From: Laetmonice hystrix
Taxonomy: Eukaryota
Direction of reading: 5' to 3'
DNA: 64,000 nucleotides
Assembly: GCA_965235115.1 (NCBI GenBank)
Contig: OZ249439.1
Coordinates: 14,508,001-14,572,000, forward strand
The translations under genes and the position numbers were made by a program. Shown here piece by piece: positions 1,699-63,251 of this stretch; position 1 is the first letter of the stretch; the number at the start of each line of letters is the position of its first letter. The notes under the pieces were generated by a model that saw only the letters and a program-made list of their open reading frames with translations, did not search any database and was not told the origin of the DNA.

Positions 1699-1853
1699 CA
1701 GTGACGTATCCAGGATGTGTCGGGGGTGGGGTGGGGTGGGGTAGGGAGGGGCTAAAAGATTGGTCGGGGGGGGGGTCCAAACGTTGCAAATGATCACATT
1801 TCCAAGAGGGGAGGGGGTGTCCGGGCAACTCAACCCCCCTGGATACACCACCA
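1699..1853. mobile_element. Degenerate G-run-rich MITE
   Basis: cagtgacgtatccagg ... cctggatacaccacca form imperfect TIRs; no clear TSD. Confidence 0.5.
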
Positions 1854-2456: not shown

Positions 2457-2689
2457 CTGGAATTCTGTATCGTCATTATTTTTCCTGGCCTCTTTCATTC
2501 GCTTGGCTTTCCGTTTGGCTCGTGCCCCCCAGTAGGTATAATTAACTGCCGCATACTCGAGCAGCGCGGCGAACACAAAGACAAAACACATGACTAGGTA
2601 GATATCAATGGCCTTGACGTAACTGATGCGAGGCAGGGATGATCGTACTCCAGTACTGATGGTTGTCATGGTGAGCACGGTGGTGATAC
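2457..2689 (-). CDS. Lcch3: Exon: M2-M3 and start of intracellular loop ([10 protein letters not shown]...NNDDTEFQ)
   Basis: Acceptor cgtcag|GTATC (phase 1); donor CAG|gtaagc (phase 0); 233 bp. Confidence 0.97.
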
Positions 2690-3454
2690 CTGACGGGCAG
2701 AACACGGATCACGTGAAGGACACGTTCAGGTAAAAACCAACAAGCTACAAGGTTAAAAACCTCACAGGTAAACTCATCGCTAGTGATATACACAGAAATA
2801 ACCATGGTATTGCAAACAAATACATTCAAAAACTACAAGATCTAAATTTCCGACATACTTATAATGTTCATGTATTACTTGCATTAATATTTTAGATCCC
2901 ATCGCGACTGTAACTATGAGAATCCATTTATACGTCATCCATGTGCTGTTACCAGAGTGGGATGTATCATGTACCACGATTCCCAATGCCACCATCTACT
3001 ATCAAATTTCTCCATTATACGCGGCAGTCACCTAAGCATGCTGTCCAAACTGTTATGCCACCTGCTGATGGGTGCATTACTTTACGTATCAGTCTACAGG
3101 TATGAAAGCTTGTATTTCTGCAGCCCGACAGTGAAAGCTGGGTCGATATTTTAATTGGCCGCCGGTGAATCATGCGAGTAGTGCTTTATAGCTAGTGAAA
3201 AGCTTCAATGAATGCACAATGGCACGATGCACATGGCGTGGATTTGTTGGCGGGGCTTTGGCGCGCCAAGCTGTGCTTATGAAGAACTATAAAAGCCTTA
3301 GAACATGATTCATCATGCTCCGGAGTTTAAGAGAGCGAATCAACAATGCAACCATGTGGTTATGAAAATAGGGAAAATTATGAGGAATATGTGCTTCTAT
3401 CCTGATGAGAGAAATAGTTGTTTTTAAAGTAAATTATAAGGATGTTTCACTCAC

Positions 3455-3607
3455 CTAACGCAACTCTGGCTGACGTTGCTTCATGGTTTATCCAAAACGA
3501 TACCCATGATAGCATCACAATGAGTATGGAAGGCAAGTAGGTTTGGAATATAAAATACCCTATGTTTCTCTGAAGTTTGAAGCTTAGCGACAGGCGCTGA
3601 TAACTTC
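3455..3607 (-). CDS. Lcch3: Exon: loop C end, M1 and start of M2 ([52 protein letters not shown])
   Basis: Not in the ORF track; translated by hand. Acceptor ctctttcag|GAAG, donor TTAG|gtgagt; 153 bp, the usual size of this GABA-A exon. Confidence 0.97.
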
Positions 3608-3927
3608 CTGAAAGAGATGAAAAGGAAAGTCAGTTGATCATCAAAATGACAGCTTACTCCATGCAATGGATACAATACGTGAAGTGAGCAGATATGGGAG
3701 ACAGAAAACTGCAATCAGAGCATCGTTTGGTGGAATCTGGGCGGGGAACGTAGGCCAATGACGTGATAGCTCGGTCACTGCAGGTATACTATAGGTGGGG
3801 TGTAGGCCTATTCGTTAGTTGGGACTGTGTAGGTGCATTTTGGGAATGTTTCAGGGTGGTATCCTTACATATATGATATACTTTTATAATCGACGCTCTG
3901 TACTGAAAACTGGTAAGCTACATCCAC

Positions 3928-4157
3928 CAGGCATGGATCCAGGATTTTATTTAAAGAATAGGCATTCAATAACACCAATCTCGAAATTCTTACTTGAAAT
4001 AACAAGAGTTATTGGCACCAAAGGAACATCATTTATTCAAGCAGCCAAATAATGTAACATGGTCACATTATAATGCCGCGGTTTTTGAATTGAAAAAAAG
4101 CTCGGCCAACTAAAGCGGGGCACGTTCCCCCTGTGCGCCCCCCAGGATCCATGCCTG
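3928..4157. mobile_element. MITE, 230 bp, with 13-bp perfect TIR (caggcatggatcc) and 7-bp flanking duplication (catccac)
   Basis: TIRs at both ends; catccac at 3921-3927 and 4158-4164; no coding capacity. Confidence 0.8.
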
Positions 4158-10456: not shown

Positions 10457-13400
10457 TCACAGAATATCTGTATGGCCTGGTGGTGCAAGGTGCCAGTGTG
10501 GTGACGTAGGCCGACCGACCACCACTCACAGAGTATCCATGGTCTGGTGGTGCAGGGTGGTGCCAGTGTGGTGACGTAGGCCGACCGACCACCACTCACA
10601 GAGTATCCATGGTCTGGTGGTGCAAGGTGCCAGTGTGGTGACGTAGGCCGACCGACCACCACTCACAGAATATCCGTATGGCCTGGTGGTGCAAGGTGCC
10701 AGTGTGGTGACGTAGGCCGACCGACCACCACTCACAGAGTATCCTTATGGTCTGGTGGTGCAAGGTGTCAGTGTGGTGACGTAGGCCGACCGACCACCAC
10801 TCACAGAGTATCCATGGTCTGGTGGTGCAAGGTGCCAGTGTGGTGACGTAGGCCGACCGACCACCACTCACAGAGTATCCATGGTCTGGTGGTGCAAGGT
10901 GCCAGTGTGGTGACGTAGGCCGACCGACCACCACTCACAGAATATCCGTATGGCCTGGTGGTGCAAGGTGCCAGTGTGGTGACGTAGGCCGACCGACCAC
11001 CACTCACAGAGTATCCATTGTCTGGTGGTGCAAGGTGGTGCCAGTGTGGTGACGTAGGCCGACCGACCACCACTCACAGAGTATCCATGGTCTGGTGGTG
11101 CAAGGTGCCAGTGTGGTGACGTAGGCCGACCGACCACCACTCACAGAGTATCCATGGTCTGGTGGTGCAAGGTGCCAGTGTGGTGACGTAGGCCGACCGA
11201 CCACCACTCACAGAGTATCCTTATGGTCTGGTGGTGCAAGGTGCCAGTGTGGTGACGTAGGCCGACCGACCACCACTCACAGAGTATCCTTATGGTCTGG
11301 TGGTGCAAGGTGCCCGTGTGGTGACGTAGGCCGACCGACCACCACTCACAGAGTATCCATGGTCTGGTGGTGCAAGGTGCCAGTGTGGTGACGTAGGCCG
11401 ACCGACCACCACTCACAGAGTATCCATGGCCTGGTGGTGCAAGGTGCCAGTGTGGTGACGTAGGCCGACCGACCACCACTCATAGAGTATCCGTATGCCC
11501 TGGTGGTGAAAGGGGGCCAGTGTGGTGACGTAGGCCGACCGACCACCACTCACAGAGTATCCATGGTCTGGTGGTGCAAGGTGCCAGTGTGGTGACGTAG
11601 GCCGACCGACCACCACTCACAGAGTATCCTTATGGTCTGGTGGTGCAAGGTGCCAGTGTGGTGACGTAGGCCGACCGACCACCACTCACAGAGTATCCAT
11701 GGTCTTGTGGTGCAAGGTGCCAGTGTGGTGAAGTAGGCCGACCGACCACCACTCATAGAGTATCCTTATGGTCTGGTGGTGCAAGGTGGTGCCAGTGTGG
11801 TGACATAGGCTGACCGACCACCACTCACAGAGTATCCATGGTCTGGTGGTGCAAGGTGCCAGTGTGGTGACGTAGGCCGACCGACCACCACTCACAGAGT
11901 ATCCATGGTCTGGTGGTGCAAGGTGGTGCCAGTGTGGTGACGTAGGCCGACCGACCACCACTCACAGAGTATCCTTATGGTCTGGTGGTGCAAGGTGCCC
12001 GTGTGGTGACGTAGGCCGACCGACCACCACTCACAGAGTATCCTTATGGCCTGGTGGTGCAAGGTGCCAGTGTGGTGACGTAGGCCGACCGACCACCACT
12101 CACAGAGTATCCTTATGGCCTGGTGGTGCCAGTGTGGTGACGTAGGCCGACCGACCACCACTCACAGAGTATCCATTGTCTGGTGGTGCAAGGTGCCAGT
12201 GTGGTGACGTAGGCCGACCGACCACCACTCACAGAGTATCCATGGTCTGGTGGTGCAGGGTGCCAGTGTGGTGACGTAGGCCGACCGACCACCACTCACA
12301 GAGTATCCTTATGGCCTGGTGGTGCAAGGTGCCAGTGTGGTGAAGTAGGCCGACCGACCACCACTCACAGAACATCCTTATGGTCTGGTGGTGCAAGGTG
12401 CCAGTGTGGTGACGTAGGCCGACCGAGCACCACTCACAGAGTATCCATGGTCTGGTGGTGCAAGGTGCCAGTGTGGTGACGTAGGCCGACCGACCACCAC
12501 TCACAGAGTATCCATGGTCTGGTGGTGCAAGGTGCCAGTGTGGTGACGTAGGCCGACCGACCACCACTCACAGAGTATCCATGGTCTGGTGGTGCAAGGT
12601 GCCAGTGTGGTGATGTAGGCCGACCGACCACCACTCACAGAGTATCCGTATGGTCTGGTGGTGCAAGGTGCCAGTGTGGTGACGTAGGCCGACCGACAAC
12701 CACTCACAGAGTATCCATGGTCTGGTGGTGCAAGGTGCCAGTGTGGTGACGTAGGCCGACCGACCACTACTCACAGAGTATCCATGGTCTGGTGGTGCAA
12801 GGTGCCAGTGTGGTGACGTAGGCCGACCGACCACCACTCACAGAGTATCCATGGTCTGGTGGTGCAAGGTGCCAGTGTGGTGACGTAGGCCGACCGACCA
12901 CCACTCACAGAGTATCCGTATGGTCTGGTGGTGCAAGGTGCCAGTGTGGTGACGTAGGCCGACCGACCACCACTCACAGAGTATCCGTATGGTCTGGTGG
13001 TGCAAGGTGCCAGTGTGGTGACGTAGGCCGACCGACCACCACTCACAGAGTATCCGTATGGCCTGGTGGTGCAAGGTGCCAGTGTGGTGACGTAGGCCGA
13101 CCGACCACCACTCACAGAGTATCCGTATGGCCTGGTGGTGCAAGGTGCCAGTGTGGTGACGTAGGCCGACCGAGCACCACTCACAGAGTATCCATGGTCT
13201 GGTGGTGCAAGGTGCCAGTGTGGTGACGTAGGCCGACCGAGCACCACTCACAGAGTATCCATGGTCTGGTGGTGCAAGGTGCCAGTGTGGTGACGTAGGC
13301 CGACCGACCACCACTCACAGAGTATCCATGGTCTGGTGGTGCAAGGTGCCAGTGTGGTGACGTAGGCCGACCGAGCACCACTCACAGAGTATCCATGGTC

Positions 13401-13788
13401 TGGTGGTGCAAGGTGCCAGTGTGGTGACGTAGGCCGACCGACCACCACTCACAGAGTATCCGTATGGCCTGGTGGTGCAAGGTGCCAGTGTGGTGACGTA
13501 GGCCGACCGACCACCACTCACAGAGTATCCATGGTCTGGTGGTGCAAGGTGCCAGTGTGGTGACGTAGGCCGACCGACCACCACTCACAGAGTATCCATG
13601 GTCTGGTGGTGCAAGGTGCCAGTGTGGTGACGTAGGCCGACCGACCACCACTCACAGAGTATCCATGGTCTGGTGGTGCAAGGTGCCAGTGTGGTGACGT
13701 AGGCCGACCGACCACCACTCACAGAGTATCCATGGTCTGGTGGTGCAAGGCGCCAGTGTGGTTACGTAGGCCGACCGAACACCACTCT
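10457..13788. repeat. Tandem array, 67-bp unit with 70-bp variants, about 49 copies
   Basis: Unit ggtctggtggtgcaaggtgccagtgtggtgacgtaggccgaccgaccaccactcacagagtatccat; variants add 3 nt. Confidence 0.97.
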
Positions 13789-26689: not shown

Positions 26690-28619
26690 GCAATTTCAGA
26701 AGCTAAATACTTGAAGTTTACGCGAATAAGGAACAATTAAGGTCAAACCAGTATCACGCCGTGCCCCAAAACAGTTGGAAAAAACAGTGTGTGTCGACCT
26801 ACGATCCAACCCCAAACAATTTTGGAATGACGTGAATTCACGGTCTAAGACCAACGAGTGCATATCTGATCTCTACTATTGCCACACGAACCATATGGGA
26901 AAGATGGCCACAGAGGACCACGAGAAAGCTGAGGTTTTAGGAGAATTTTTTGCCAGTACATTTACAACGGAACCCCAAGATGTTTTGCCAACCGTACATA
27001 CTCCAGAAGCCAGAGGTATAACCGAGTATTCAACGAACGTCTTCATCACAAGGGAGATAGTGAGGAAAAAACTATCCAAGATTTCTCCGGGTAAAGCTCC
27101 AGGACCTGACGGCATTCACTTTAGGATGTTATTGGAATTAGCTGATGAACTATGTACACCACTCTACGATTTTCAAGTCTATTTTAAAGAATTCCACATT
27201 GCCCATTATTTGGAAATCAGCTAAAGTCACAGCCATTTACAAGAAAGGCGACAAGAGCGTACCAGGCAACTATATCCCAGTCAGCTTAACTTGCATTGCT
27301 GGTAAAATCCTTGAATTCATCATAAGGGACATCATTATTAACCACATGGGGAAATTCAAACTTTTTTCACCGAACCAATATGGCTTTATCAACGGTCGAT
27401 CAACGGTGCTGCAACTTCTCCATGTTCTCGAGATTTGGCATGAGGTCTTAGATTCTGGAGGAAGCCTATGCACAGTTTACAGGGATTTTATGAAGGCGTT
27501 TGACAAAGTGCCACATAGGAGGTAACTACACAAAATACAGAGTTACGAATTTGATGGGCAACTTCTAGATTGGATCAGGAGTTTTTTAACATGCAGACAG
27601 CAGCAGGTTATGGTCAATGGATCTGTCTCAAGGTGGAATCCTGCGATTGGTGGTATTCCACAAGGATCAGTCCTAGGGCCCGTTCTCTTTGTAATCTTTA
27701 TCAACGACCTACCGGAAAATATTACATCGTTTACGTATCTCTTTGCTGACGACATCAAGTGCTTCAGGGAAATAAAGGATGGGAGGGATTTGGATATCTT
27801 CCAAGACGACATCAATAAATTACATAGCTGGTTATGTGATTTGCTTCTCCCGTTCCATCCTGAAAAATGCAAAGTTATGAAGATTGGAAATACCGAAAGG
27901 GAATATGATTATTTGCCTGGTTCGGGAACACCTCTTATTACGGTAGAAGACGAAAAAGACCTGGGTGTTATAATAGATCGTGCACTGCATTTCAGGAAAG
28001 ACATTACTAACCGTGTTAACAATGCCAACAGGATTATGGGAGCCATCAGAAGATCTTTTTTACACTTGGACAATGACATTTTTAAAACACTTTTTAAAAC
28101 TATGGTTAGACAACATCTTGAATACGCAGCCTCTATCTGGAATCCCGGTTGTAAGAAGGATGTAACCTTGCTGGAGAGACTGCAGAGATGTGCCACAAAA
28201 CTGCTACCTGGGTTCAAAGATATTAGTTACGAAGAACGACTAATTGAAGTTTTTAAGTTGTTTAATTGTTATGATTGTGAACCTGATCGGATCCTGAGTC
28301 TTGCATCGGAAACTTCAACAACGAGAGGGCACGACTATAAACTGTACAAAAAATTCAGCAGAACTGGCAAGAGGCTCAATAGTTTTTCAAGGAGAGTAGT
28401 GTCTACCTAGAACGCCTTGCCAGCTGCCGCTGGAACTGCCCCAAATCTAATCATTTTTAAGAACAGACTTGATCGCCACCTTAAATCCCATGCTGCTAAA
28501 TTTAACTGGGAAGCGGTTCTGGTCAATGGTCATGCGCAATCCTTAGTTAATGAAGCGGTCACCAGGATCTGGGTATAGAGGTAGAATGCCTGCACACAGT
28601 AACATCCTAAGCTATCCTA
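26690..28619 (+). mobile_element. 5'-truncated, decayed CR1/L2-type non-LTR retrotransposon (RT pseudogene plus 3' end)
   Basis: Motifs KAPGPDGI, NYIPVSLTCI, NQYGFINGRST, DFMKAFDKVPH, GIPQGSVLGPVLF, LFADDI, EKDLGV, LEYAASIWNP. Frameshift near 27165 and stops at about 27525 and 28410. Ends in a short repeated tail (atcctaagctatcctaa). Confidence 0.92.
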
Positions 28620-42711: not shown

Positions 42712-43532
42712 GTTCGTATCTCTGAGTGAGAGTGGAGGTTGTCGTAGTGGGTTCGTATCTCTGAGTGAGAGTGGAGGTTGTCGTAGTGGGTTCGTATCTC
42801 TGAGTGAGAGTGGAGGTTGTCGTAGTGGGTTCGTATCTCTGAGTGAGAGTGGAGGTTGTCGTAGTGGGTTCGTATCTCTGAGTGAGAGTGGAGGTTGTCG
42901 TAGTTGGTTCGTATCTCTGAGTGAGAGTGGAGGTTGTCGTAGTGGGTTCGTATCTCTGAGTGAGAGTGGAGGTTGTCGTAGTGGGTTCGGATCTCTGAGT
43001 GAGAGTGGAGGTTGTCGTAGTGGGTTCGTATCTCTGAGTGAGAGTGGAGGTTGTCGTAGTGGGTTCGTATCTCTGAGTGAGAATGGAGGTTGTCGTAGTG
43101 GGTTCGTATCTCTGAGTGAGAGTGGAGGTTGTCGTAGTGGGTTCGTATCTCTGAGTGAGAGTGGAGGTTGTCGTAGTGGGTTCGTATCTCTGAGTGAGAG
43201 TGGAGGTTGTCGTAGTGGGTTCGTATCTCTGAGTGAGAGTGGAGGTTGTCGTAGTGGGTTCGTATCTCTGAGTGAGAGTGGAGGTTGTCGTAGTGGGTTC
43301 GGATCTCTGAGTGAGAGTGGAGGTTGTCGTAGTGGGTTCGTATCTCTGAGTGAGAGTGGAGGTTGTCGTAGTGGGTTCGTATCTCTGAGTGAGAGTGGAG
43401 GTTGTCGTAGTGGGTTCGTATCTCTGAGTGATAGTGGAGGTTGTCGTAGTGGGTTCGTATCTCTGAGTGAGAGTGGAGGTTGTCGTAGTGGGTTCGTATC
43501 TCTGAGTGAGAGTGGAGGTTGTCGTAGTGGGT
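42712..43532. repeat. Tandem array, 39-bp unit, 21 copies, very homogeneous
   Basis: Unit gggttcgtatctctgagtgagagtggaggttgtcgtagt. Confidence 0.97.
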
Positions 43533-44348
43533 GATCCCAAATGACACATTCCATATACTACTGCTATAGCCGGTCAGTGGAACCCTACAATGACAGTCGG
43601 AGAGGCGGTGTCACTCCGACACACGCCCGGCCACAGTCCACAGCAGTCCGGGCTAGAGCAATCCGTCCCGTCTCGGACCCAAAGGTCGTTTTTATATTCG
43701 GAGATCGACAATCTGGCTGCTTCGACCAAGTAGGTACTAAAACCGTGCCGCTAATCTTCCGTTCTGATGACTTGTCGTTGGTATTTACTGTAGGAGCGGG
43801 TCGAGCATTGACAAGGCGGGCACACCGACTGATCGAGGACCCCGATAATATCAGGCTGGCTGACGATGCCCACAATAACGGAGGCAATCCGCTCGGCGCC
43901 CTTGGCCTCACACTGTCAGCTTTATGAGCCGGGGGTGAGCAGGGCGTACTCGTATTGGTCGTATGACCTCAATCCCAGCGATGGCCGACGTTCGAGCCAA
44001 CCCCCACGGGGGTGAGCTAGACAGGCGTTCCGACACGGCCAAGACCTTTTGGCGGACTCTGGGGCCAGGAAAAGCAGCAGTCTATATGCCGCACAACGCA
44101 ACTATAAACTCAACCACAGTCGGTTTCCAGGAATATCTGGCAGTAAATGTCGGTACCCCGAGATGGTCCCTCCGAGAGACCAGTGGTCCGCAGTGAAAAC
44201 TTACACCTCGGCCACTTTAATTACTAAATCTAGTAGAGGAGATATAGCCAATAATCATTAATATGTTGATTTATAAAGTTGTATTGTTTTTAATCTCGGA
44301 ACCGATCAAAGAGTCCGAGCCATTCAACCCCACACGTCTATACTAGCC

Positions 44349-46048
44349 TGTGTGTGCACTGGGTGACCTTATGATAATAATGTACGTGTGTATAATACCC
44401 TGTATGTGCACTGGCTGACCTTATGATAATAATGTACGTGTGTATAATACCCTGTATGTGCACTGGCTGACCTTATGATAATAATGTACGTGTGTATAAT
44501 ACCCTGTATGTGCACTGGCTGACCTTATGATAATAATGTACGTGTGTATAATACCCTCTATGTGCACTGGCTGACCTTATGATAATAATGTACGTGTGTA
44601 TAATACCCTGTGTGTGCACTGACTGACCTTATGATAATAATGTACGTGTGTATAATACCCTGTATGTGCACTGGCTGACCTTATGATAATAATGTACGTG
44701 TGTATAATACCCTGTATGTGCACTGGGTGACCTTATGATAATAATGTACGTGTGTATAATACCCTGTATGTGCACTGGCTGACCTTATGATAATAATGTA
44801 CGTGTGTATAATACCCTGTATGTGCACTGGCTGACCTTATGATAATAATGTACGTGTGTATAATACCCTGTATGTGCACTGGCTGACCTTATGATAATAA
44901 TGTACGTGTATATAATACCCTGTGTGTGCACTGGCTGACCTTATGATTAATGTACGTGTGTATAATATACCCTGCATGTGCACTGGCTGACCTTATGATA
45001 ATAATGTACGTGTGTATAATACCCTGTATGTGCACTGGCTGACCTTATGATAATAATGTACGTGTATATAATACCCTGTGTGTGCACTGGCTGACCTTAT
45101 GATTAATGTACGTGTGTATAATATACCCTGTATGTGCACTGACTGACCTTATGATAATAATGTACGTGTGTATAATACCCTGTATGTGCACTGGCTGACC
45201 TTATGATAATAATGTACGTGTGTATAATACCCTGTATGTGCACTGGCTGACCTTATGATAATAATGTACGTGTGTATAATACCCTGTATGTGCACTGGCT
45301 GACCTTATGATAATAATGTACGTGTGTATAATACCCTGTATGTGCACTGGCTGACCTTATGATAATAATGTACGTGTGTATAATACCCTCTATGTGCACT
45401 GGCTGACCTTATGATAATAATGTACGTGTGTATAATACCCTGTGTGTGCACTGGCTGACCTTATGATAATAATGTACGTGTGTATAATACCCTGTATGTG
45501 CACTGGCTGACCTTATGATAATAATGTACGTGTGTATAATACCCTGTATGTGCACTGGGTGACCTTATGATAATAATGTACGTGTGTCTAATACCCTGTG
45601 TGTGCACTGGCTGACCTTATGATAATAATGTACGTGTGTATAATACCCTGTGTGTGCACTGGCTGACCTTATGATAATAATGTACGTGTGTATAATACCC
45701 TGTATGTGCACTGGCTGACCTTATGATATTAATGTACGTGTGTATAATACCCTGTATGTGCACTGGGTGACCTTATGATAATAATGTACGTGTGTATAAT
45801 ACCCTGTGTGTGCACTGGCTGACCTTATGATAATAATGTACGTGTGTATAATACCCTGTGTGTGCACTGACTGACCTTATGATAATAATGTACGTGTGTA
45901 TAATACCCTGTATGTGCACTGGCTGACCTTATGATAATAATGTACGTGTGTATAATACCCTGTATGTGCACTGGCTGACTTATGATAATAATGTACGTGT
46001 GTATAATACCCTGTATGTGCACTGGCTGACCTTATGATAATAATGTAT
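44349..46048. repeat. Tandem array, 52-bp unit, about 32 copies
   Basis: Unit gtgcactggctgaccttatgataataatgtacgtgtgtataataccctgtat. Confidence 0.97.
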
Positions 46049-49742: not shown

Positions 49743-50367
49743 ACCGATCGGGGAGGGGGCACAGGGTTGTCCATAAAGTCCCAAGTCGGACCGATCGGGG
49801 AGGGGGCAGAGGGTTGTCCGTAAAGTCCCAAGTCGGGCCGATCGGGAAGGGGGCAGAGGGTTGTCCATAAAGTCCCAAGTCGGACCGATCGGGGAGGGGG
49901 CACAGGGTTGTCCGTAAAGTCCCAAGTCGGACCGATCGGGGAGGGGGCAGAGGGTGGCCGGTAAAGTCCCAAGTCGGACCGATCGGGGAGGGGGCATAGG
50001 GTTGCCCGTAAAGTCCCAAGTCGGACCGATCGGGGAGGGGGCAGAGGGTTGCCCGTAAAGTCCCAAGTCGGACCGATCGGGGAGGGGGCAGAGGGTTGCC
50101 CGTAAAGTCCCAAGTTGGACCGATCGGGGAGGGGGCAGAGGGTTGCCCGTAAAGTCCCAAGTCGGACCGATCGGGGAGGGGGTAGAGGGTTGCCCATAAA
50201 GTCCCAAGTCGGACCGATATAGGGGAGGGGGCAGGGGGTTGCCCGTAAAGTCCCAAGTCGGAAGCGATATAGGGGAGGGGGCAGAGGGTTGCCCGTAAAG
50301 TCCCAAGTCGAAAGCGATATAGGGGAGGGGGCAGAGGGTTGCCCGTAAAGTCCCAAGTCGAAAGCGA
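49743..50367. repeat. G-rich tandem array, 47-bp unit, about 13 copies
   Basis: Unit gggttgcccgtaaagtcccaagtcggaccgatcggggagggggcaga; last copies diverged. Confidence 0.95.
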
Positions 50368-53318: not shown

Positions 53319-54264
53319 GTGGAGCAGATGGAAAATAGCAATGGTACACATACACTGGTGGAGCAGATGGAAAATAGCAATGGTACACAGATACTGGTGG
53401 AGCAGATGGAAAATAGCAATGGTACACAGATACTGGTGGAGCAGATGGAAAATAGCAATGGTACACAGATACTGGTGGAGCAGATGGAAAATAGCAATGG
53501 TACACATATGTGGTGGAGCAGATGGAAAATAGCAATGGTACACATATACTGGTGGAGCAGATGGAAAATAGCAATGGTACACAGATACTGGTGGAGCAGA
53601 TGGAAAATAGCAATGGTACACAGATACTGGTGGAGCAGATGGAAAATAGCAATGGTACACAGATACTGGTGGAGCAGATGGAAAATAGCAATGGTACACA
53701 TATATGGTGGAGCAGATGGAAAATAGCAATGGTACACATATACTGGTGGAGCAGATGGAAAATAGCAATGGTACACAGATACTGGTGGAGCAGATGGAAA
53801 ATAGCAATGGTACACAGACACTGGTGGAGCAGATGGAAAATAGCAATGGTACACATATGTGGTGGAGCAGATGGAAAATAGCAATGGTACACATATACTG
53901 GTGGAGCAGATGGAAAATAGCAATGGTACACAGATACTGGTGGAGCAGATGGAAAATAGCAATGGTACACAGATACTGGTGGAGCAGATGGAAAATAGCA
54001 ATGGTACACAGATACTGGTGGAGCAGATGGAAAATAGCAATGGTACACATATATGGTGGAGCAGATGGAAAATAGCAATGGTACACATATACTGGTGGAG
54101 CAGATGGAAAATAGCAATGGTACACAGATACTGGTGGAGCAGATGGAAAATAGCAATGGTACACAGACACTGGTGGAGCAGATGGAAAATAGCAATGGTA
54201 CACAGATACTGGTGGAGCAGATGGAAAATAGCAATGGTACACAGATACTGGTGGAGTAGATGGA
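53319..54264. repeat. Tandem array, 39/38-bp unit, about 24 copies, with higher-order structure
   Basis: Unit ggtggagcagatggaaaatagcaatggtacacagatact; a 38-bp variant occurs at monomers 5, 10, 14 and 19. Confidence 0.96.
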
Positions 54265-54534
54265 AGCTTTCACTTGATTAAAGGGTAGGGATGACGTCAT
54301 GTATGGCTTTAGAACCTAAAGATGCAGTGTGTAAGGAGAAAGAAAACCTATACGTATGCCTATCCCATTGAGGGGCTGGAGTTTAGGGATCACCATGCCC
54401 AGTTGAGGCCAGGAATTTGGTATTATCACACAAGGCCGATAGCCGGTCTTTAAGAGCAGTTAAGGGTCGGTAATTAGGACGATCCCACAGAGTGGAGTGA
54501 TAGTAATTTGATCTGACCACGACGGACAGATGCA

Positions 54535-54722
54535 TCAATTAGGTCTGACCAAATTCTGCTGAGAGATAGTAATTAGGACTGACCAAACTCTACTGGGGGA
54601 CGGTAATTAGGACTGACCAAACTCTGCTGGGGGACGGTAATTAGGACTGACCAAACTCTGCTGGGGGACGGTAATTAGGACTGACCAAACTCTACTGGGG
54701 GACGGTAATCACGACTGACCAC
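54535..54722. repeat. Tandem array, 34-bp unit, about 5.5 copies
   Basis: Unit ggtaattaggactgaccaaactctrctgggggac. Confidence 0.9.
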
Positions 54723-55467: not shown

Positions 55468-55472
55468 ATGTT
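55468..55472. repeat. Target site duplication, left copy (ATGTT)
   Basis: Identical to 62460-62464 and sits exactly where the hairpin stem stops. Confidence 0.88.
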
Positions 55473-55563
55473 TATAACGTACATCCCGATCTAGAAATGT
55501 TCCCCATCGATCATCCTGACGTCGATCGATGGGGAACATTTCTAGATCGGGATGTACGTTATA
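55473..55563. repeat. Perfect 40-bp-stem hairpin with 11-nt loop, made of two opposed LTR 3' ends
   Basis: 55473-55512 is the exact reverse complement of 55524-55563. 55502-55528 is also the exact reverse complement of 62388-62414. Confidence 0.95.
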
Positions 55564-55812
55564 GTAAACTCTGTGGCCACGAGAGCTCGGGAAAAAGGAA
55601 GCCAGTGACAGTGGACGGCGTGGTCATCATCGATGTGTTATTGAAGCCAGTAATCAGCGAGGAGGTGCGGTGAGAACTTCCATTTTGTCAACGAGTGGCA
55701 TGGACTGAGGTCAGTGTGTCTAGGCTGTGAATTTAAGCCAGTAAACAAGTCTTAAAGTCAGCAGGGTGCGTTTCGCTGCTAGTGATCAGTGTCACAGTGA
55801 CAGTGTTCAGTT

Positions 55813-58800
55813 ATGAAGGGCGACGAAGCACACACGAGCACGGCACGCGGGAGCCTGACCACACGGGCCACAACAAAGGCGGCTTTAGATCAGAGACAGA
55901 CAAGTAGAGACAGTTTGGATGTTATTACTAATCAGCTGAAACCGCTGATCAGTTCACCGAAAACAGAGCCATCGCTGGTCAAAACAACATATGCTGGCTG
56001 GATGCAGAACTATGAACGGTACCTGGTTGCTCATCAGGATTATATGGCGGTGGCCCCCATTGAAAATCGTCTCAAGGCCGAGGAAGACTACGCTGGTGAG
56101 TTAACATCATTCAAAAATTTCAAGGAATCAGTTGAACACTGGTTTTTATCGAATGGTAGCCAGCATGTACCAGACAGGCAGGCAGCTCGTAGTGTCAGAA
56201 CGGGATACTCGGGGAATTCTGGACGTAGTGCCCATTCGAGCACCAGATCGGCCTTGCTGTTGGCCAAAGCTCAGGAAGGTCAACGTAAGGCAGAGCTCAT
56301 AGCCAGGGCAGAAGCCCTACATGCCAAGAAACAGTTACAGGAACAAAAGCTCAAACTTCAGTATCAAGAGGAGGAGTTAATGTTAGCAACCGAGATTAAG
56401 GTGGCCGATGCGAGGACAGCCATCATTGAGGAGCTGGAACGGAGCGAATTAAACGACAATATGGTCCTCCAGAATACTCAGTGCGAAGATCCTGGCCCTA
56501 TACAGTCGTCACAGCTGAATGAGAATTACCAGCCGCCTATGCATACCCAGAGGAATTCCGAATTGGATGTGGGCCGTCATTTTGTGGGGCAAGAGACGCC
56601 TTTGACATCGCTAGAAGCGGGTTTAGGTCAGTTGGACGGCGTTGTACGGGAACTGAGAAAACCTACATCAGATTTACAAAGGTTCACTGGGGATCTAATG
56701 GATTATCGGAGATTCCTAAGGCAGTTCAGGGCAAGGGTGGTGTGTAACACCACATGTGATGAAGAAAGGCTGAACTTTCTTGAACAGTTTACAGACGGGG
56801 AACCTCGTAGTATAGTGAAGGGGTACAGTTGCCTGGACGCCAGCGTTGGGTATCGGGCCGCATTGGCTGAACTGGAAAGGCGTTACGGGGATCAGGAGTT
56901 GATAGCCAATGCCTACATCAGACGTGCACTGGACTGGCCACCGATCAAGCCTGATGATGACAAAGGCTTGGACGCTTTCTCCATTTTCCTGATGGAATGT
57001 GAAAACGCAGTGAAGGAAATAGACGGTATGAAAATTCTGGAATTTTCTGAAAACCTAAAGAGACTGGTGGGTAAACTTCCCTTTAGAATGCATGACAGAT
57101 GGCGGACACTTGTCCAAGATACCAAGGACAAAGGAGACACGGTCACCTTCAGTCAACTGGTCAGGTTCACTCGGAATGAAGCGAAAAGGATCACTGACCC
57201 GACCTATGGCAGGCAAGCAATGCAAGAATGCTCAGGGAGTAGAAGTAGGCCTCCTAGTAGTCATAAGTCTACATCAATCAAGAAGAGCACCTTTGCCACT
57301 TCGGTGTCGTCTGGGGCCTCGCCGTGTGTCGCAAGCCAGGCACCAAGGTCACCGAGTGACGCTAAGGAACAGCCGGTTAGTTCAGCTTCTGGCCAAGGGA
57401 GGGCAGCACAAGCAGGAGATGTTGCCTTCATCAAACCCTGTGCATACTGTTCGGATTCTAACCACACTCTAGAGAACTGTCATAAGTTGAGAGCTCAGGC
57501 CTATGGTAACAGGACAGATTTTCTGAAATCAAAGGGTGTATGCTACGGATGCCTGAAACCGGGGCATCAGGTCAAGCTGTGTCATAAGCGAGCAAGGTGT
57601 GTCAGTTGTGGCCGTGCACACCCTTCTGTTTTGCATAGAGAGCCACCAGCTGGACAGCAACCGGGTGGACCCAAGTCGGGACCTGCAAATGGTGAACAGC
57701 CAGTCGATAAGGTGAGTTCACATACGGCCATCACAGGTTCAAGGGCACAAGACAATGACCAGGGCAGTCAAGTGGATGGCGCACAGTGTCATATGGGAGC
57801 CGGTGAGGAGCACGGCATGACCACTATGGCGATTGTTCCGGTCAGGGTCAAATGCCGCAATGGTGGGGTAACAGTAGAAACCTATGCATTTATGGATCCT
57901 GGCAGCAACGTGAGTTTTTGCACTGAAAGGCTGGCAGTGCAGCTGGGAGTCAGAGGCAAACAGGTAGTGATGGACCTAGACACGATGGGCGAGCGGCAGA
58001 AGTTCACCACTCACAAAATTTCTGGTCTAGAGTTGAGCGCTTTAACTGGAGACGATGACAGTGTCAAGTTGCCAGCAGTATACACGAAGCCACAAATGCC
58101 AGTAACGGTTGACCTCATACCGACCCAGGCTGATATCGTAAGGTTTGAGCATTTGACGAATCTTCAGCTGCCAGTGATAAACGCGGATATAGGCCTGCTC
58201 ATAGGTAACAATGTACCGGATGCTTACACCCCTACGGAACTCAAGACCGGTCCACGAGGGACCCCACATGCTGCTAAAACTGCAATCGGATGGATATTGT
58301 GGAATGTCATAAGGGACAGGGAGCTCCAAAATCGCTTATCGTCTAACAGAGCACAGGCTACAGTGATTGAAGATGCCGGGAGCCTAGATCGGCTAGAGCT
58401 ATTGGTTAAGAATGCCATAAACATGGATTTTCCAGAGCGTGTCGTAGACACTAAGCGCGAACCATCTGTCGAAGACAAACAGTTCTGTAGGATAGTGGAA
58501 CAGACCATGGAGTTCAGAGACGGTCACTATTACATTGACCTACCATTCCGTGATGAGAACATCAAGCTACCGGATAACCGAGAGCTGGCTATGAACCGTT
58601 TGTTGTCCCTGAGGAGAAGGATGATCAAGAACCCGGACTTCCACAAAGATTACACAGATTTTGTGCAAAATCTGATAGAAAAGGGCTATGCTGAGAGGGT
58701 CAGCGAGAGCACGGGCAGTCATGCCAAGTGGTACATTCCCCATCATGGGATATACAACCCTAACAAGGAAAAAATCAGGGTCGTGTTCGACTGTTCAGCT

Positions 58801-61713
58801 AAAACTAGAGGCATATCACTCAACGACACCCTTCTCTCTGGGCCGATACTAACTCACACTATTGTCGCCATTTTGCTCCGGTTCAGGGAACAACCTATTG
58901 CGCTGATGGGCGACATAGAAGGGATGTTCAATCAGGTGAAGGTGTCCGAGCATCACAGGAACTTTCTTTGCTTCCTATGGTATCCAGATGGGGATATAAC
59001 CAGAGAACCAGAGGTGTACCGGATGACGTCGCATCCTTTTGGCGCCGCTTCTTCGCCTGCCTGCGCCGCCTCAGCGTTACGTCAGTGTGCTAGGGACAGT
59101 CGAGGTCAGAGCTCAGAGGCCACTCTTGACACTATCCTCCGTAACTTCTATGTCGACGACCTGCTTAAGTCAGTCGCTACCGAGGATGAAGGTATCCAGA
59201 TCAGGGAGGACGTCACCTCAGCCTGTCAGAGGGGAGGATTTAGGATACACAAGTGGGTCAGTAACAGCCAGGCTGTTAATGAGTCCATTCCACTGTCAGA
59301 AAGGTCAAGGTCACTGCAGTTGGCCATAGAAGATGATCAGCCGCACTCGGAACGAGCCTTAGGACTGTTCTGGGACACGGAAGCAGACACGTTTGGTTTT
59401 AAGATAAACCTGAAGGAGCAACCAGCAACCAAGAGAGGGATTCTGTCAGTCATCAGCAGGGTATTCGACCCACTAGGATTAGCTGGGCCGTTTGTTTTGC
59501 CAGCCAGGATTCTGTTACAAGGCTTGTGTAAACAGAATTTGTCCTGGGATGATTACATCGAAGGAAAGGACTTGAAACAGTGGGAGCAGTGGCTTACAGA
59601 CATTCAAGAGTTGGAACAGCTGACCATCCCACGCAGTGTGAAACCCCCCAGCTTTGAGTCCGTCGTGAGCTGTCAGCTCCATACGTTCTCTGATGCGTCA
59701 GACCATGGCTATGGAATAGCCATGTATATACGTCTACAGGACAGTCAGGGCCCCATTTGCTGCAGGTTGCTATATGGAAAATCAAGGGTGGCTCCACTTA
59801 AAAAGGTCACTACTCCAAGGATGGAGCTCACAGCAGCGAGCATCGCTGTTCAATTCGTTGCGATGGTGACCAGCGAGATGAACTACCAGTTCGATAGAAC
59901 CATTTTCTGGACTGACAGCATGTCTGTACTCAGGTATATTGCGAACACCACGAGCAGGTTTCACACATTCGTGGCTAATCGAGTCACTACTATCCAGGAA
60001 GGCTCAACATTAAACCAGTGGAAATATGTTCCCACAGAGTGTAACCCTGCCGATGCAGCATCCAGGGGGCTAGGGGTGAAGAAACAGCAAGCTATCGAAC
60101 AATGGCTCTTAGGACCAAAGTTCCTGTGGGAGCCGGAGTCTAGCTGGCCAAGCTCAGAATTTTCCAAGGACATTCCTGTGGAAGACCCAGAGGTCAAGAG
60201 AACCAACGCAGTGGTGGCACATCCTACTGACGTAGTGAAAGTTGACGAGTTTTTCTCCAGATATTCCAGCTGGGTTAAGCTAAAGACCACTGTGGCTTGG
60301 GTATTACAACTACAAACCGCATTCCGGCAACGTCGCACCATGGACGTTAAACTTCAAGATGTGAAGATGGACAGGCCAGCCCCACTTACGGTAGGGGACC
60401 TAGAGTCAGCCGAGACTGCCATAGTCAGATACCTCCAGTGGAGATACCTGCCTAACAACGGGAGAAACATGGCCTCCGTTCAGAAACTAGATCCGTTTCT
60501 AGATGAACATGGACTGCTGCGAGTGGGAGGGCGTATCAGGCACGCCAGGATACCAACTCAGGTGAAGAACCCTATACTGATACCAAACTCGCATGTCGCC
60601 AGGTTGTGTGTCCAGTCTGCCCATCAGATAGTTGGCCATTTGGGTTCGTGCAGTACAGTCGGCCGCCTGAGGCAAAAGTATTGGATTCCTAGAGCTGGAG
60701 TTGTCGTCCGCAGCGTCATCAATAAGTGTGTGATCTGTCGTCGGTACCGGGCTAAGCGGATGGAACAAAAGATGGCAGACTTGCCGATCGAACGCTTGGA
60801 AATGGATCAGGCCCCATTCACGCAATCGGGCATGGACTATTTCGGTCCCTTTCTCATCAAGAGGGGCAGGAGTGAGCTTAAACGCTATGGAATAATCTTT
60901 ACCTGTTTCTCCAGTCGTGCAGTGCACATCGACATGGCTCAGGATCTCACCACAGATGCATGCATTAATGCGGTAAGAAGATTCGCTGCTAGGCGCGTTG
61001 TCCGCAGACTGAGATCCGACAACGGCACCAACCTGGTCGGTGCTTGTAGAGAGTTGAAGGATGAGATCAACAAATGGAACCAGTCCAAAATTGGTGCATC
61101 ACTCCGTCAGCAGGGTATCGACTGGGAGTTCAACTGCCCTGCCGCTTCCCACCATGGGGGCATTTGGGAAAGGCTGATTCGGTCAATTCGAAAGGTACTT
61201 TATGGCATCACCAAGGAACAGGTGATTCATCTAGATGATGAGGGACTTCGCACATTGTTTTGTGAAGTGGAGGCTATCCTAAACGCACGCCCCATTACGA
61301 GAGTATCAAGTGACGCCTCAGACTTGTTGGCACTGACGCCCAACCACCTTCTCAAACTCGAAGCAGATCAGGCACCACCGCCCGGGATCTTTGTCAAAGA
61401 AGACAACTACGTGAAGAGAAGGTGGAGGCAGATTCAGCACCTGGCTAACGTGTTTTGGCACCGATGGACCAGGGAATACCTTGTTGCACTGCAAGAGCGT
61501 CAAAAGTGGCACAAGGAATCGAGGAACGTCAAAGTGGGAGACATAGTTTTGGTAGTAGACAGTAGTATGCAGAGAAATCAGTGGCCAGTAGGGCGTGTGA
61601 CTGAGGTAAAGGAGGACACCAAGGGGCTTGTCAGAGTAGTCAAGGTCAGAGTAGGCTCGGCGGTCTTCGAACGTCCAGTCACCAAGTTGTGTCTGATCCT
61701 TGAGGCGGACTAA
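55813..61713 (+). CDS. BEL/Pao Gag-Pol polyprotein, 1966 aa, uninterrupted
   Basis: Three Cys/His knuckles (CAYCSDSNHTLENC from 57439, CYGCLKPGHQVKLC, CVSCGRAHPSVLH); protease FMDPGS (D at 57895); RT YVDD (59149-59160); RNase H/Pao-peptidase FSDAS (DAS at 59692); integrase HHCC plus D-D-E (DYFGP 60835, SDNG 61018, WERLIR 61168); C-terminal RWRQIQHLANVFWHRW segment typical of BEL elements. Confidence 0.97.
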   Translation: MKGDEAHTSTARGSLTTRATTKAALDQRQTSRDSLDVITNQLKPLISSPKTEPSLVKTTYAGWMQNYERYLVAHQDYMAVAPIENRLKAEEDYAGELTSFKNFKESVEHWFLSNGSQHVPDRQAARSVRTGYSGNSGRSAHSSTRSALLLAKAQEGQRKAELIARAEALHAKKQLQEQKLKLQYQEEELMLATEIKVADARTAIIEELERSELNDNMVLQNTQCEDPGPIQSSQLNENYQPPMHTQRNSELDVGRHFVGQETPLTSLEAGLGQLDGVVRELRKPTSDLQRFTGDLMDYRRFLRQFRARVVCNTTCDEERLNFLEQFTDGEPRSIVKGYSCLDASVGYRAALAELERRYGDQELIANAYIRRALDWPPIKPDDDKGLDAFSIFLMECENAVKEIDGMKILEFSENLKRLVGKLPFRMHDRWRTLVQDTKDKGDTVTFSQLVRFTRNEAKRITDPTYGRQAMQECSGSRSRPPSSHKSTSIKKSTFATSVSSGASPCVASQAPRSPSDAKEQPVSSASGQGRAAQAGDVAFIKPCAYCSDSNHTLENCHKLRAQAYGNRTDFLKSKGVCYGCLKPGHQVKLCHKRARCVSCGRAHPSVLHREPPAGQQPGGPKSGPANGEQPVDKVSSHTAITGSRAQDNDQGSQVDGAQCHMGAGEEHGMTTMAIVPVRVKCRNGGVTVETYAFMDPGSNVSFCTERLAVQLGVRGKQVVMDLDTMGERQKFTTHKISGLELSALTGDDDSVKLPAVYTKPQMPVTVDLIPTQADIVRFEHLTNLQLPVINADIGLLIGNNVPDAYTPTELKTGPRGTPHAAKTAIGWILWNVIRDRELQNRLSSNRAQATVIEDAGSLDRLELLVKNAINMDFPERVVDTKREPSVEDKQFCRIVEQTMEFRDGHYYIDLPFRDENIKLPDNRELAMNRLLSLRRRMIKNPDFHKDYTDFVQNLIEKGYAERVSESTGSHAKWYIPHHGIYNPNKEKIRVVFDCSAKTRGISLNDTLLSGPILTHTIVAILLRFREQPIALMGDIEGMFNQVKVSEHHRNFLCFLWYPDGDITREPEVYRMTSHPFGAASSPACAASALRQCARDSRGQSSEATLDTILRNFYVDDLLKSVATEDEGIQIREDVTSACQRGGFRIHKWVSNSQAVNESIPLSERSRSLQLAIEDDQPHSERALGLFWDTEADTFGFKINLKEQPATKRGILSVISRVFDPLGLAGPFVLPARILLQGLCKQNLSWDDYIEGKDLKQWEQWLTDIQELEQLTIPRSVKPPSFESVVSCQLHTFSDASDHGYGIAMYIRLQDSQGPICCRLLYGKSRVAPLKKVTTPRMELTAASIAVQFVAMVTSEMNYQFDRTIFWTDSMSVLRYIANTTSRFHTFVANRVTTIQEGSTLNQWKYVPTECNPADAASRGLGVKKQQAIEQWLLGPKFLWEPESSWPSSEFSKDIPVEDPEVKRTNAVVAHPTDVVKVDEFFSRYSSWVKLKTTVAWVLQLQTAFRQRRTMDVKLQDVKMDRPAPLTVGDLESAETAIVRYLQWRYLPNNGRNMASVQKLDPFLDEHGLLRVGGRIRHARIPTQVKNPILIPNSHVARLCVQSAHQIVGHLGSCSTVGRLRQKYWIPRAGVVVRSVINKCVICRRYRAKRMEQKMADLPIERLEMDQAPFTQSGMDYFGPFLIKRGRSELKRYGIIFTCFSSRAVHIDMAQDLTTDACINAVRRFAARRVVRRLRSDNGTNLVGACRELKDEINKWNQSKIGASLRQQGIDWEFNCPAASHHGGIWERLIRSIRKVLYGITKEQVIHLDDEGLRTLFCEVEAILNARPITRVSSDASDLLALTPNHLLKLEADQAPPPGIFVKEDNYVKRRWRQIQHLANVFWHRWTREYLVALQERQKWHKESRNVKVGDIVLVVDSSMQRNQWPVGRVTEVKEDTKGLVRVVKVRVGSAVFERPVTKLCLILEAD

Positions 61714-62148
61714 GGACACAAGTTCTCCAGTTCATTGCTCTGGATTAGTAACATTCATGATTGTGCTCAAAGACTCAGGAACAATTTCTCACATTTATTG
61801 CATGATTGAGGAAATCTAGATCAGTGTTACTTCAGTAGTTGGCTTCCAAGGGCAGAATAATCCCTCCAACTACTTTTAGGAGGTGCTGGCAGTCTACCAG
61901 CCCTTCTTGTTATTTTTTTTTTTTACAGTGTTTCAGCTGCTTTGTATCTCATGTTAGAGAACGTAAGGTCTTAAATATGACCATTCGAGGTGTATTTAAC
62001 TTTGTCGCTAGAGACTGACCCATATGGCTATAGAGACATGACACTTACTTGGATTTCCCAAGTTTTTTATTGGTAGTCTGCATGAGAACTTTTCGGAACC
62101 AGAAGAAAGGGACAATAGGGAGTAATAATTGCTCCGTGTGCCGCAATT

Positions 62149-62160
62149 AGGGAGCCGGGA
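62149..62160 (+). other. Polypurine tract (agggagccggga)
   Basis: Purine-rich run directly abutting the LTR TG. Confidence 0.8.
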
Positions 62161-62414
62161 TGTTGGCACGGGTATTAGTTTTGTTTCTACTTTACCGTTT
62201 TCGCGCACCTGTCGAATAGGCAGCGCCACCTAGCCGGAAGTGAGGGGCTTGAAAAGTTGACCAGTGACCACGAGGTTGGATGGGAGTTTCTCCAGGCTTT
62301 GTTATAAGATAGAGTGGCTCTATCAGAGTTTACGTGGCTCTACACGGATTTGTAAGGCATCTACGGAATAAATAGGTTCCAAACTAACGATCGACGTCAG
62401 GATGATCGATGGGG
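62161..62414 (+). repeat. 3' LTR of the BEL element (positions 1-254 of a reconstructed 283-bp LTR)
   Basis: Begins TGT right after the PPT; TATAAG at 62303 and AATAAA at 62367-62372. The missing last 29 nt (aacatttctagatcgggatgtacgttata) are found at 55535-55563. Confidence 0.88.
62367..62372 (+). terminator. LTR polyadenylation signal AATAAA
   Basis: Motif at LTR position 207-212, about 70 nt before the reconstructed LTR end. Confidence 0.6.
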
Positions 62415-62459
62415 CGCGAAAACGGTAAAGTAGAAACAAAACTAATACCCGTGCCAACA
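62414..62459 (-). repeat. Inverted copy of LTR nt 1-46; true outer U3 terminus
   Basis: 46/46 reverse complement of 62161-62206; followed directly by the TSD. Confidence 0.93.
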
Positions 62460-62464
62460 ATGTT
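62460..62464. repeat. Target site duplication, right copy (ATGTT)
   Basis: Directly follows ...GTGCCAACA. Confidence 0.88.
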
Positions 62465-63115: not shown

Positions 63116-63251
63116 AAATACGAGCATAGCGATCCATTTCCTTCCTGATGAGTGACAGGTTCCTACTCCACTCATTATCATCAAAATACGAGCATAGCGA
63201 TCCATTTCCTTCCTGATGAGTGACAGGTTCCTACTCCACTCATTATCATCA
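63116..63251. repeat. Exact 68-bp tandem duplication
   Basis: aaatacgagcatagcg...cattatcatca occurs twice. Confidence 0.93.

Follow-up and report, generated by a model that had tools for sequence, protein, structure and literature searches.

BEL/Pao retrotransposons are recorded as priming reverse transcription with a tRNA, at an 18-nt site for tRNA-Arg or tRNA-Gly, and the start of the process is otherwise called 'poorly understood' (PMC8742986). A triple Cys/His knuckle in Gag is named as a BEL/Pao feature in the available text of PMC554778. The Tf1 primer is 11 nt long (PMC7175516, in the part available), and the accessible section of PMC6317226 describes a self-priming screen that asks for at least 10 bp of complementarity within 0-5 nt of the LTR. 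Fold-back self-priming of HIV-1 minus-strand strong-stop DNA has been described in vitro; nucleocapsid suppresses it, and its products were undetected in endogenous reactions (PMC6088434, from an excerpt). Inverted proviruses amount to 2 of 78 in vivo, by our own sum over the categories given in the available portion of PMC9278108. Our literature search found no report of self-priming or of a spliced primer in BEL/Pao.

Coding interior and inverted termini

The window (the whole 64-kb stretch of DNA analysed here) carries an element whose termini and interior point in opposite directions (Table 1). The interior is a single ORF that has no stops and lacks env. Pfam recovers DUF1759, RVT_1 (under its curated cut-off), Peptidase_A17, Integrase_H2C2 and DUF5641. 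The acidic residues of PR, RT, RNase H and IN are present, as are the zinc knuckles, and Gag bears the triple Cys/His knuckle. The domain order PR-RT-RH-IN and the Pao-type Gag and Pol are those of BEL/Pao, the identity given in the original prediction.

Protein searches at E<=1e-50 retained 2232 of 7625 candidates, and all of the best 120 carry Peptidase_A17 and DUF5641. The best named relative among the matches listed is a hemichordate element with 59% identity over residues 900-1966; none of the 120 exceeds this value. The exact sequence search and the plasmid collection gave no match. The element is placed among relatives of this kind, and the assignment is at the level of BEL/Pao, above the subclades Suzu, Sinbad, Sparrow and Surcouf. 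A 5-bp target site duplication (TSD) also flanks one relative (L008). In place of the two direct LTRs of 0.2-1.2 kb expected of BEL/Pao, the copy has one near-complete LTR plus inverted arms, which we read as a rearrangement of this one copy. The best explanation is a young BEL/Pao retrotransposon with an intact ORF, from a lineage predicted to be self-priming.

Table 1. Features of the element, in window coordinates
Feature	Position	Strand	Remarks
Left TSD copy	55468..55472	+	5 bp, ATGTT
Left terminal arm	55473..55528	-	LTR 228-283, outward-pointing (U5 end)
Natural inverted repeat	55508..55528	.	5 bp, 11-nt loop; left junction is the proposed fold-back point
LTR 244-283	55524..55563	+	sole 5' LTR remnant ahead of interior
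Primer-binding site (PBS), non-tRNA type	55564..55573	+	exact complement of 62324-62333; offset 0 from LTR end
Remaining 5' leader	55574..55812	+	
Intact gag-pol ORF	55813..61713	+	1966 aa; Gag with three Cys/His knuckles, PR, RT, RNase H, IN
Polypurine tract (PPT)	62149..62160	+	adjoins LTR 1; same arrangement in relatives
3' LTR positions 1-254	62161..62414	+	
Candidate TATA-like box	62303..62309	+	from sequence; 15-21 nt upstream of predicted self-primer
Predicted self-primer	62324..62333	+	LTR 164-173; contiguous in window copy
Poly(A) signal	62367..62372	+	+38 behind the primer's second part; L006 +38, L004 +36
Right terminal arm	62414..62459	-	LTR 1-46
Right TSD copy	62460..62464	+	5 bp, ATGTT

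TSD lengths of 3-8 were tried and only length 5 matches, with a chance of about 0.001 for fixed ends. Three inverted duplicates are exact: 46/46 nt (62161-62206 and 62414-62459), 40/40 nt (55473-55512 and 55524-55563) and 27/27 nt (55502-55528 and 62388-62414). There is also a direct overlap of 11 nt (55524-55534 and 62404-62414). The 5' LTR remnant and the left arm form a perfect 40-bp hairpin. On the rechecked LTR numbering the interior runs from LTR 244-283 to LTR 1-254, LTR 47-227 occurs in the 3' LTR only, and 5 nt are shared at the left junction and 1 at the right. The TSD, the identical duplicated pieces and the inverted interior with its 5-nt and 1-nt junctions had all been proposed beforehand and hold after recomputation. 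The likeness to an 'opened one-LTR circle' is sound as geometry but is probably a by-product of where both switches fell. The age, given as 'very recent', is weaker than claimed: 113 identical nt permit up to ~2.6% divergence (3/113, rule of three). Identity of the duplicates dates the rearrangement rather than the insertion. Youth is better indicated by the unbroken ORF.

The left arm ends in TA at its U5 end, as do both U5 copies of the element, whereas the LTRs of relatives end in CA. The end at ...TATA is independently supported, because a 10-nt self-complementary stretch begins at the very next base. Extension of the LTR to a canonical CA was rejected, as it would abolish the TSD and would run into sequence where the interior copy diverges. 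LTR 254 was also considered as the RNA 3' end and set aside because the poly(A) signal precedes it by 42 nt. Within the 64-kb window there is no second LTR copy, solo LTR, second flank copy or empty site.

A predicted self-primer and its split form in relatives

LTR 164-173 is complementary at 10 of 10 positions to the first 10 nt after the LTR, at offset 0, and none of 400 control pseudo-sites reached that match. The pairing satisfies the published screen as worded in the accessible section of PMC6317226. Judged by TGG at the LTR end, the 18-nt site for a host tRNA 3' end is missing: neither the window element nor five relatives have a TGG within 5 nt of the LTR end. A TGG ten bases into the leader was set aside as a tRNA site because of its offset. 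ARAGORN returned nothing. Together, the missing tRNA site and the 10-nt LTR complement carry the signature of what would be Tf1-type self-priming.

Upstream of the primer, the LTR could pair with the leader region 55576-55581 in a further short helix. In 6/6 cases the paired stretch has CA at its 5' edge, against an LTR CA frequency of 0.04-0.07, a regularity noticed post hoc. The self-primer pair and the missing tRNA site were absent from the original prediction, and we judge them the more important feature of the locus.

Of seven testable relatives, with L002, L007, L010 and L011 set aside for their missing LTR ends, five show an 11-nt complement that appears only when a GT-AG intron within the LTR is bridged. 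These introns span 137-625 nt. Contiguous searches in the relatives give at best 7-9 nt, so that a contiguous PBS search misses the split primer. The spliced 11-nt match was reached in 3, 2, 6, 4 and 1 of 400 nulls, respectively. When the LTR end was not supplied, the counts were 0, 5, 3, 5 and 4 of 200, and each relative matches its own site (11 nt at its own junction, 2-6 nt at foreign ones), with the filters of these latter two tests chosen after the sites had been seen. L004 and L006 have one site in common, which leaves four independent relatives. Under a stricter acceptor filter the 11-nt match is kept in three of the five and shortens to 10 in L003 and 8 in L004. L009 has a 13-nt spliced match that 5 of 100 shuffles also reach, which is not significant, and one of the seven relatives has an ordinary TGG site. 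First exons as short as the predicted 5-9 nt would be out of the ordinary. Given the spliced match in five of seven relatives, these aquatic BEL elements probably assemble their primer by splicing.

The window's own LTR has no consensus splice donor, and an intron there was rejected (spliced matches reach at most 9 nt, at poor sites). Its pairing is 10 nt, compared with 11 in the relatives. Very probably, judging from these complementarities and their nulls, the 5' end of the element RNA would pair with the 10 nt directly behind the LTR and be cleaved off as a primer, as in Tf1; in the relatives an intron in the LTR would split the primer and splicing would join the halves before pairing; and the window LTR would be the intron-less form. 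The transcription start, the splicing and the cleavage are each predicted, whereas the complementarities and nulls are observed.

Alternatively, the pairing could be real but structural, with a role in packaging, dimerisation or poly(A) control, and the primer could be another host RNA. ICTV describes tRNA priming for the family (PMC8742986), and both the self-primer and the transcription start are sequence predictions. We nevertheless regard this as improbable. TGG is missing at the LTR ends, and the primer sites of the five relatives differ from one another. The pairing sets in at the LTR end or beside it (in L001 the distance to the apparent end is 5 nt) and stops at 10-11 nt every time, and Rfam is blank for the window and six loci.

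A wider reading seems to us evenly balanced. A widespread aquatic BEL/Pao group may make its primer by splicing a 5-9-nt first exon across an LTR intron into an 11-nt primer. The spliceosome would then license replication, and only the cap-proximal LTR copy would yield primer. The element in the window would be a member without the intron, preserved by integration as an intermediate whose two strong-stop DNAs had swapped roles.

Origin of the inverted layout

The architecture, TSD and ORF are observed, and we think it rather probable that they record an aberrant product of one reverse-transcription round, inserted by integrase. Every step of the following route is inferred. Minus-strand strong-stop DNA would halt at LTR 228, fold back on the 5-bp inverted repeat and copy itself over U5 and the attached primer, which would give a plus-sense end of U5 and PBS. 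This end would pair with the PBS of the full-length minus strand and copy the interior. At the far end the growing strand must displace the resident plus-strand strong-stop DNA; at LTR 254 it would switch onto that DNA at position 46 and run off its 5' end. The resulting linear DNA would keep its U5 and U3 ends intact but on exchanged sides, and integrase would insert it with the usual 5-bp duplication.

Each terminal arm corresponds to the beginning of one of the strong-stop DNAs, and each strand's 5' end coincides with a primer-defined end (PBS side and PPT side). All four breakpoints (LTR 46, 228, 244 and 254) fall inside LTR sequence. Of 1,000,000 internal inversions drawn at random, 0.3% have an end in each of the two LTRs, a figure that takes no account of the layout having been picked for its oddness. 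Of 70 end positions tested on the LTR 174-243 minus strand, with partners sought within each natural piece, 2 could fold back with at least 5 bp. These two lie in a single hairpin, and one of them is the junction itself. The fold-back stem has low stability: the arm gives -3.0 kcal/mol, and the required register has a pairing probability of ~0.23. The 'double template switch' of the original prediction holds. It had left open whether this happened before or after insertion, and we lean to before, within reverse transcription, because both arms start at ends set by primers, no breakpoint falls outside the LTR and a local hairpin underlies the left junction.

TA in both U5 copies is as expected of a fold-back copy. 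The right junction, with its 1-nt overlap, is a poor site for an RT switch. A single copy shows this layout. Its interior has no promoter and primer in front, so the copy is probably a dead end.

The main rival is a double switch after insertion. A regular element would have inserted and then undergone a chromosomal rearrangement, either by replication-fork template switching or break repair (inversion, 181-nt deletion and short duplication) or by fold-back in one LTR with repair on the other. The intact TSD and unique flanks fit such a history, as does the 27-nt inverted repeat that now brackets the interior. So do junction overlaps of 5 and 1 nt with a deletion and a duplication, a combination typical of microhomology-mediated repair. 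Any inversion has two junctions, and no additional event is therefore needed. We still hold it to be unlikely. Both ends must fall in LTRs, as few random inversions do, and a join of LTR copies 6.9 kb apart must hit a hairpin that spans 16 nt of the LTR. TA in both copies requires a family trait or an extra step, and the unbroken ORF leaves little time since insertion.

A library or assembly artefact, either a fold-back chimera or an interior mis-oriented across the 27-nt inverted repeat, is very unlikely. Perfect hairpins, a typical output of amplification and of long-read fold-backs, are present here and the duplicates are all identical. Yet a simple fold-back would not give two different junctions leading back to a matching TSD, the 27-nt repeat is shorter than any read, and the flipped arrangement would still hold both novel junctions. 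No N occurs in the window, and an array of 49 units (3.3 kb) is resolved in it, which suggests long reads and speaks against an artefact.

Least probable of all, and by our estimate hardly credible, is that swapped, hairpin-forming ends are the family's normal structure in a BEL lineage replicating with inverted ends: the ORF and both of the ends used by integrase are intact, but an inverted copy of the own LTR ends occurs in none of six related loci (29-41% identical, mostly collapsed contigs without flanks), the interior lacks a promoter or primer in front, and PPT, PBS and poly(A) signal are arranged as for direct LTRs. Palindromes in L002 and L004 that resembled the same architecture proved on reading to be separate inserted elements. 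Autointegration puts junctions at the LTR tips with a 5-bp internal duplication; the junction positions found here agree with its earlier dismissal. DIRS elements have a tyrosine recombinase, inverted termini and no TSD, and the DDE integrase and 5-bp TSD rule out such an element.

Significance and comparison with described systems

If the self-primer is true, BEL/Pao becomes the third superfamily on the self-priming list. A spliced primer, if true, would connect RNA processing with retro-replication in a new way and provide a possible host control point; it would offer an escape from tRNA-fragment silencing and explain BEL elements without a detectable PBS. An inverted copy made in reverse transcription would be a rare genomic record of folded-back strong-stop DNA that was completed and integrated. 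LTR finders miss intact elements of such inverted layout.

With BEL/Pao (Belpaoviridae, Semotivirus) of aquatic lineages the element has in common a single gag-pol, three Cys/His knuckles, PR-RT-RH-IN, a PPT, a 5-bp TSD and an LTR that starts with TG. It differs in lacking the 18-nt tRNA site, in its swapped termini and in its U5 end TA.

With Tf1, Tf2 and sushi (Ty3/gypsy) it has in common a 10-11-nt LTR complement of the site directly behind the LTR, with no tRNA needed (PMC7175516 and PMC6317226, in the parts available). It belongs to another superfamily, and in five relatives the primer is predicted to be intron-split and complementary only once spliced. Membership was rejected, as Pol is Pao-type and not gypsy-type: the element would work like Tf1 without being one. 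Self-priming is also predicted for Tcn1 and TAR copia.

With HIV-1 the element would have in common a strong-stop DNA that folds back at a hairpin in the LTR (PMC6088434, from an excerpt), and HIV-1 inversions and asymmetric LTRs are ascribed to RT switching in the available portion of PMC9278108. The HIV-1 fold-backs are, in the text available, dead-end products in vitro, whereas here the product would be completed and integrated, with its ends swapped and its interior whole.

Architecture of the inserted element

The BEL/Pao element at 55468-62464 carries an interior that is inverted relative to its termini and target-site duplication (TSD). The TSD, ATGTT, occupies 55468-55472 and 62460-62464, and 5 is the sole fit among duplication lengths of 3 to 8 (chance about 0.001). 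With LTR numbering that begins at 62161, the order along the plus strand is flank, LTR 283-228 reversed, LTR 249-283, leader, ORF, purine tract, LTR 1-254, LTR 45-1 reversed and flank. The inverted duplicates are exact (46/46, 40/40 and 27/27 nt), with an additional direct overlap of 11 nt, and the junctions overlap by 5 nt at the left and 1 nt at the right. The stop-free ORF (55813-61713) encodes 1966 aa with the Pao domain set and every catalytic residue checked. The TSD, duplicates, junction overlaps and intact ORF of the original prediction are all borne out by the sequence, and the architecture is real. U5 ends in TA in both copies (55473 and 55563) and in CA in all relatives examined.

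Neither a second copy nor an empty site was found within the 64-kb window, and the exact protein sequence is absent from the collection searched. Named protein relatives are 46-59% identical and, among the matches listed, come from hemichordates, molluscs, lancelets, echinoderms, nemerteans and fish. A genome-collection scan returned 11 loci (L001-L011), animal-type BEL elements in bacterial assemblies with 29-45% identity, that represent either contamination or true host-to-symbiont insertion. One of them, L008, lies inside a 1.44-Mb Wolbachia chromosome record and has direct LTRs and a 5-bp TSD.

The window also contains a host gene exon, an ORF with a neurotransmitter-gated ion-channel membrane domain (819-1496, minus strand), and a separate reverse-transcriptase fragment (27610-28410, plus strand) dissimilar to the BEL ORF in tblastn. 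Minisatellite arrays at 10472-13787, 42712-43532, 44347-46047, 49743-50360, 53319-54265 and 54537-54721 are homogeneous (units of 34-67 nt, 92-98% matches), and two lie within 1.2 kb of the insertion. A perfect 68-nt tandem duplication (63116-63251) lies to the right of the element at a distance of about 650 nt.

Origin of the inversion

The inversion, interesting but local, is probably an aberrant reverse-transcription product inserted by integrase, most likely as a one-off. At its 5' end the top strand carries the initial 56 nt of minus strong-stop DNA; the 5' end of the bottom strand consists of the initial 46 nt of plus strong-stop DNA. A fold-back of at least 5 bp, with partners sought only inside each natural piece, is possible at 2 of 70 minus-strand end positions (LTR 174-243), both in one hairpin; the junction is one of them, and its stem is weak, with a pairing probability of about 0.23. 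Minus strong-stop DNA may have folded back and extended over U5 and the attached primer, giving a product with the 3' end of plus strong-stop DNA that could transfer at the site right behind the LTR (PBS). The second switch would be coupled to the first, because the plus strand thus begun would have to displace plus strong-stop DNA stranded at the far end; a switch onto that DNA, from 254 to 46, would finish the product. HIV-1 offers precedents: self-priming by minus strong-stop DNA in vitro, which nucleocapsid suppresses (PMC6088434), and inverted proviruses in 2 of 78 cases by summing categories (PMC9278108). This route does not account for the TA ends or the 1-nt right junction.

A rearrangement after insertion is a possible but rather unlikely origin, since it needs one end in each LTR, as do 0.3% of random internal inversions (uncorrected for selection), and its long-range join must happen to land on the local hairpin. 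Two distinct junctions, the intact TSD and the gap-free resolution of a 49-unit array in the window make an artefact improbable. Least probable of all is a family-wide layout, as inverted LTR-end copies occur in 0 of 6 loci, most of them without flanks.

A putative self-primer and its predicted spliced counterpart

Immediately behind the LTR, ten bases (55564-55573) inversely match LTR 164-173 (62324-62333), and no TGG, the tRNA-type site, is present there; the original prediction noticed neither. Comparison of the left 500 nt with the right 600 nt gives no other inverted match of at least 10 nt except the 27-nt duplicate, and 0 of 400 ORF pseudo-sites reach 10 nt. The duplex amounts to -12.1 kcal/mol, or -23.5 with the adjoining helix, and the pairing passes a published screen for self-primers (PMC6317226).

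Seven relatives were tested, leaving out L002, L007, L010 and L011, whose LTR end is missing. L008 has an ordinary TGG site and no self match. In five relatives the best contiguous match is an ordinary 7-9 nt (reached by 13-102 of 400 controls), and the bases behind the LTR are complementary to a joined sequence made of the 5-9 nt that precede a GT donor and the 2-6 nt that follow an AG acceptor. These putative introns are T-rich with consensus-like donors, and four have the acceptor TTTCAG.

Putative GT-AG introns in the LTRs of five relatives; joined exon ends complement the site behind the LTR
Locus	Position	Length (nt)	Spliced match (nt)	Controls reaching 11 nt (of 400)
L001	6191-6327	137	11	3
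L003	5921-6171	251	11	2
L004	13604-13991	388	11	6
L005	3439-4063	625	11	4
L006	60-458	399	11	1

Because LTR ends were chosen by eye (for L003 and L005 after the match was known), the test was repeated without a supplied end, using filters fixed after the sites were seen. The same 11-mer was the top match in 5/5, at distances of 0, 0, 0, 1 and 5 nt from a preceding ACA; of 200 shuffled targets for each, 0, 5, 3, 5 and 4 gave 11 nt. In the first test, a stricter acceptor filter retained three of the five. Junctions match their own site over 11 nt and foreign sites over 2-6 nt, except for L004 and L006, counted as one because their site is the same. A 13-nt spliced match in L009 (6804-7301, 7735-7747), a divergent relative whose LTR region is very long, begins with CA, lies 5 nt behind an ACA and is not significant alone (5 of 100 shuffles are as good). 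An integrase tree of 28 rows with midpoint rooting, in which L008 and L009 have long branches, separates L003-L006 from L001 and the window element by a 98/100 split; the trait therefore extends beyond a single branch.

The window primer's last five bases are the first five of exon 2 in L004 and L006, and poly(A) signal distances are alike (+38 in the window, +36 and +38 in L004 and L006). No consensus splice donor is present in the window LTR, and we infer that it is an intron-less form. The self-primer and its spliced counterpart form a statistically firm sequence pattern; the mechanism is a prediction.

Some relatives carry further features. L005 has an additional 238-aa ORF between primer site and gag (4234-4950) that lacks a Pfam match. 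Near-perfect palindromic inserts in BEL gag and LTR (L004 6106-7276, 1.17 kb; L002 2414-2696, 0.28 kb) are apparently separate foldback/MITE-like elements, and a second LTR element is nested in the L004 gag (1386-6105).

Predicted priming and known systems

The paired stretch starts at CA in 6/6 cases, a regularity noticed afterwards (LTR CA frequency 0.04-0.07), and such a start resembles an initiator. Pairing ends at 10-11 nt in every case, as expected if this is the RNA start and every newly made PBS copies the primer. Transcription would start at the CA edge, which would make the first exon 5-9 nt long. The cap-proximal donor would be spliced and its distal counterpart, near the 3' end of the RNA, mostly skipped, so that primer forms at the 5' end alone and the intron is inherited; an intron-less lineage would arise from a single 3' copy that had been spliced. 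Alternatively, transcription could start about 70 nt upstream of the paired stretch, as TATA-like boxes in L001 and L003, some 95 nt upstream, would suggest, but such a start would require extra trimming. In Tf2, primer formation is already governed by the choice of start site (PMC5341516), and Tf1 cDNA retains a copy of its primer (PMC11042837).

The article listings searched, with Repbase, GyDB and subscription journals outside their scope, showed no BEL/Pao self-priming, spliced primer or comparable layout, so earlier notice may exist. The words 'primer' and 'tRNA' are absent from PMC3118150, PMC6238403 and PMC8556966, and 'tRNA' and 'priming' from the available portion of PMC554778. In portions of PMC3601003, PMC6934838 and PMC12451622, self-priming is listed for gypsy-type elements only, or the content is taxonomic. 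A BEL/Pao self-primer, contiguous or spliced, is apparently undescribed. The ICTV profile assigns the family an 18-nt tRNA site (PMC8742986), whereas the window element has a self-complementary site instead. Its pairing mirrors Tf1, in which RNase H cuts off the first 11 bases, which pair with the PBS (PMC7175516), and thus points to a Tf1-type priming variant, predicted from sequence, in a superfamily filed as tRNA-primed.
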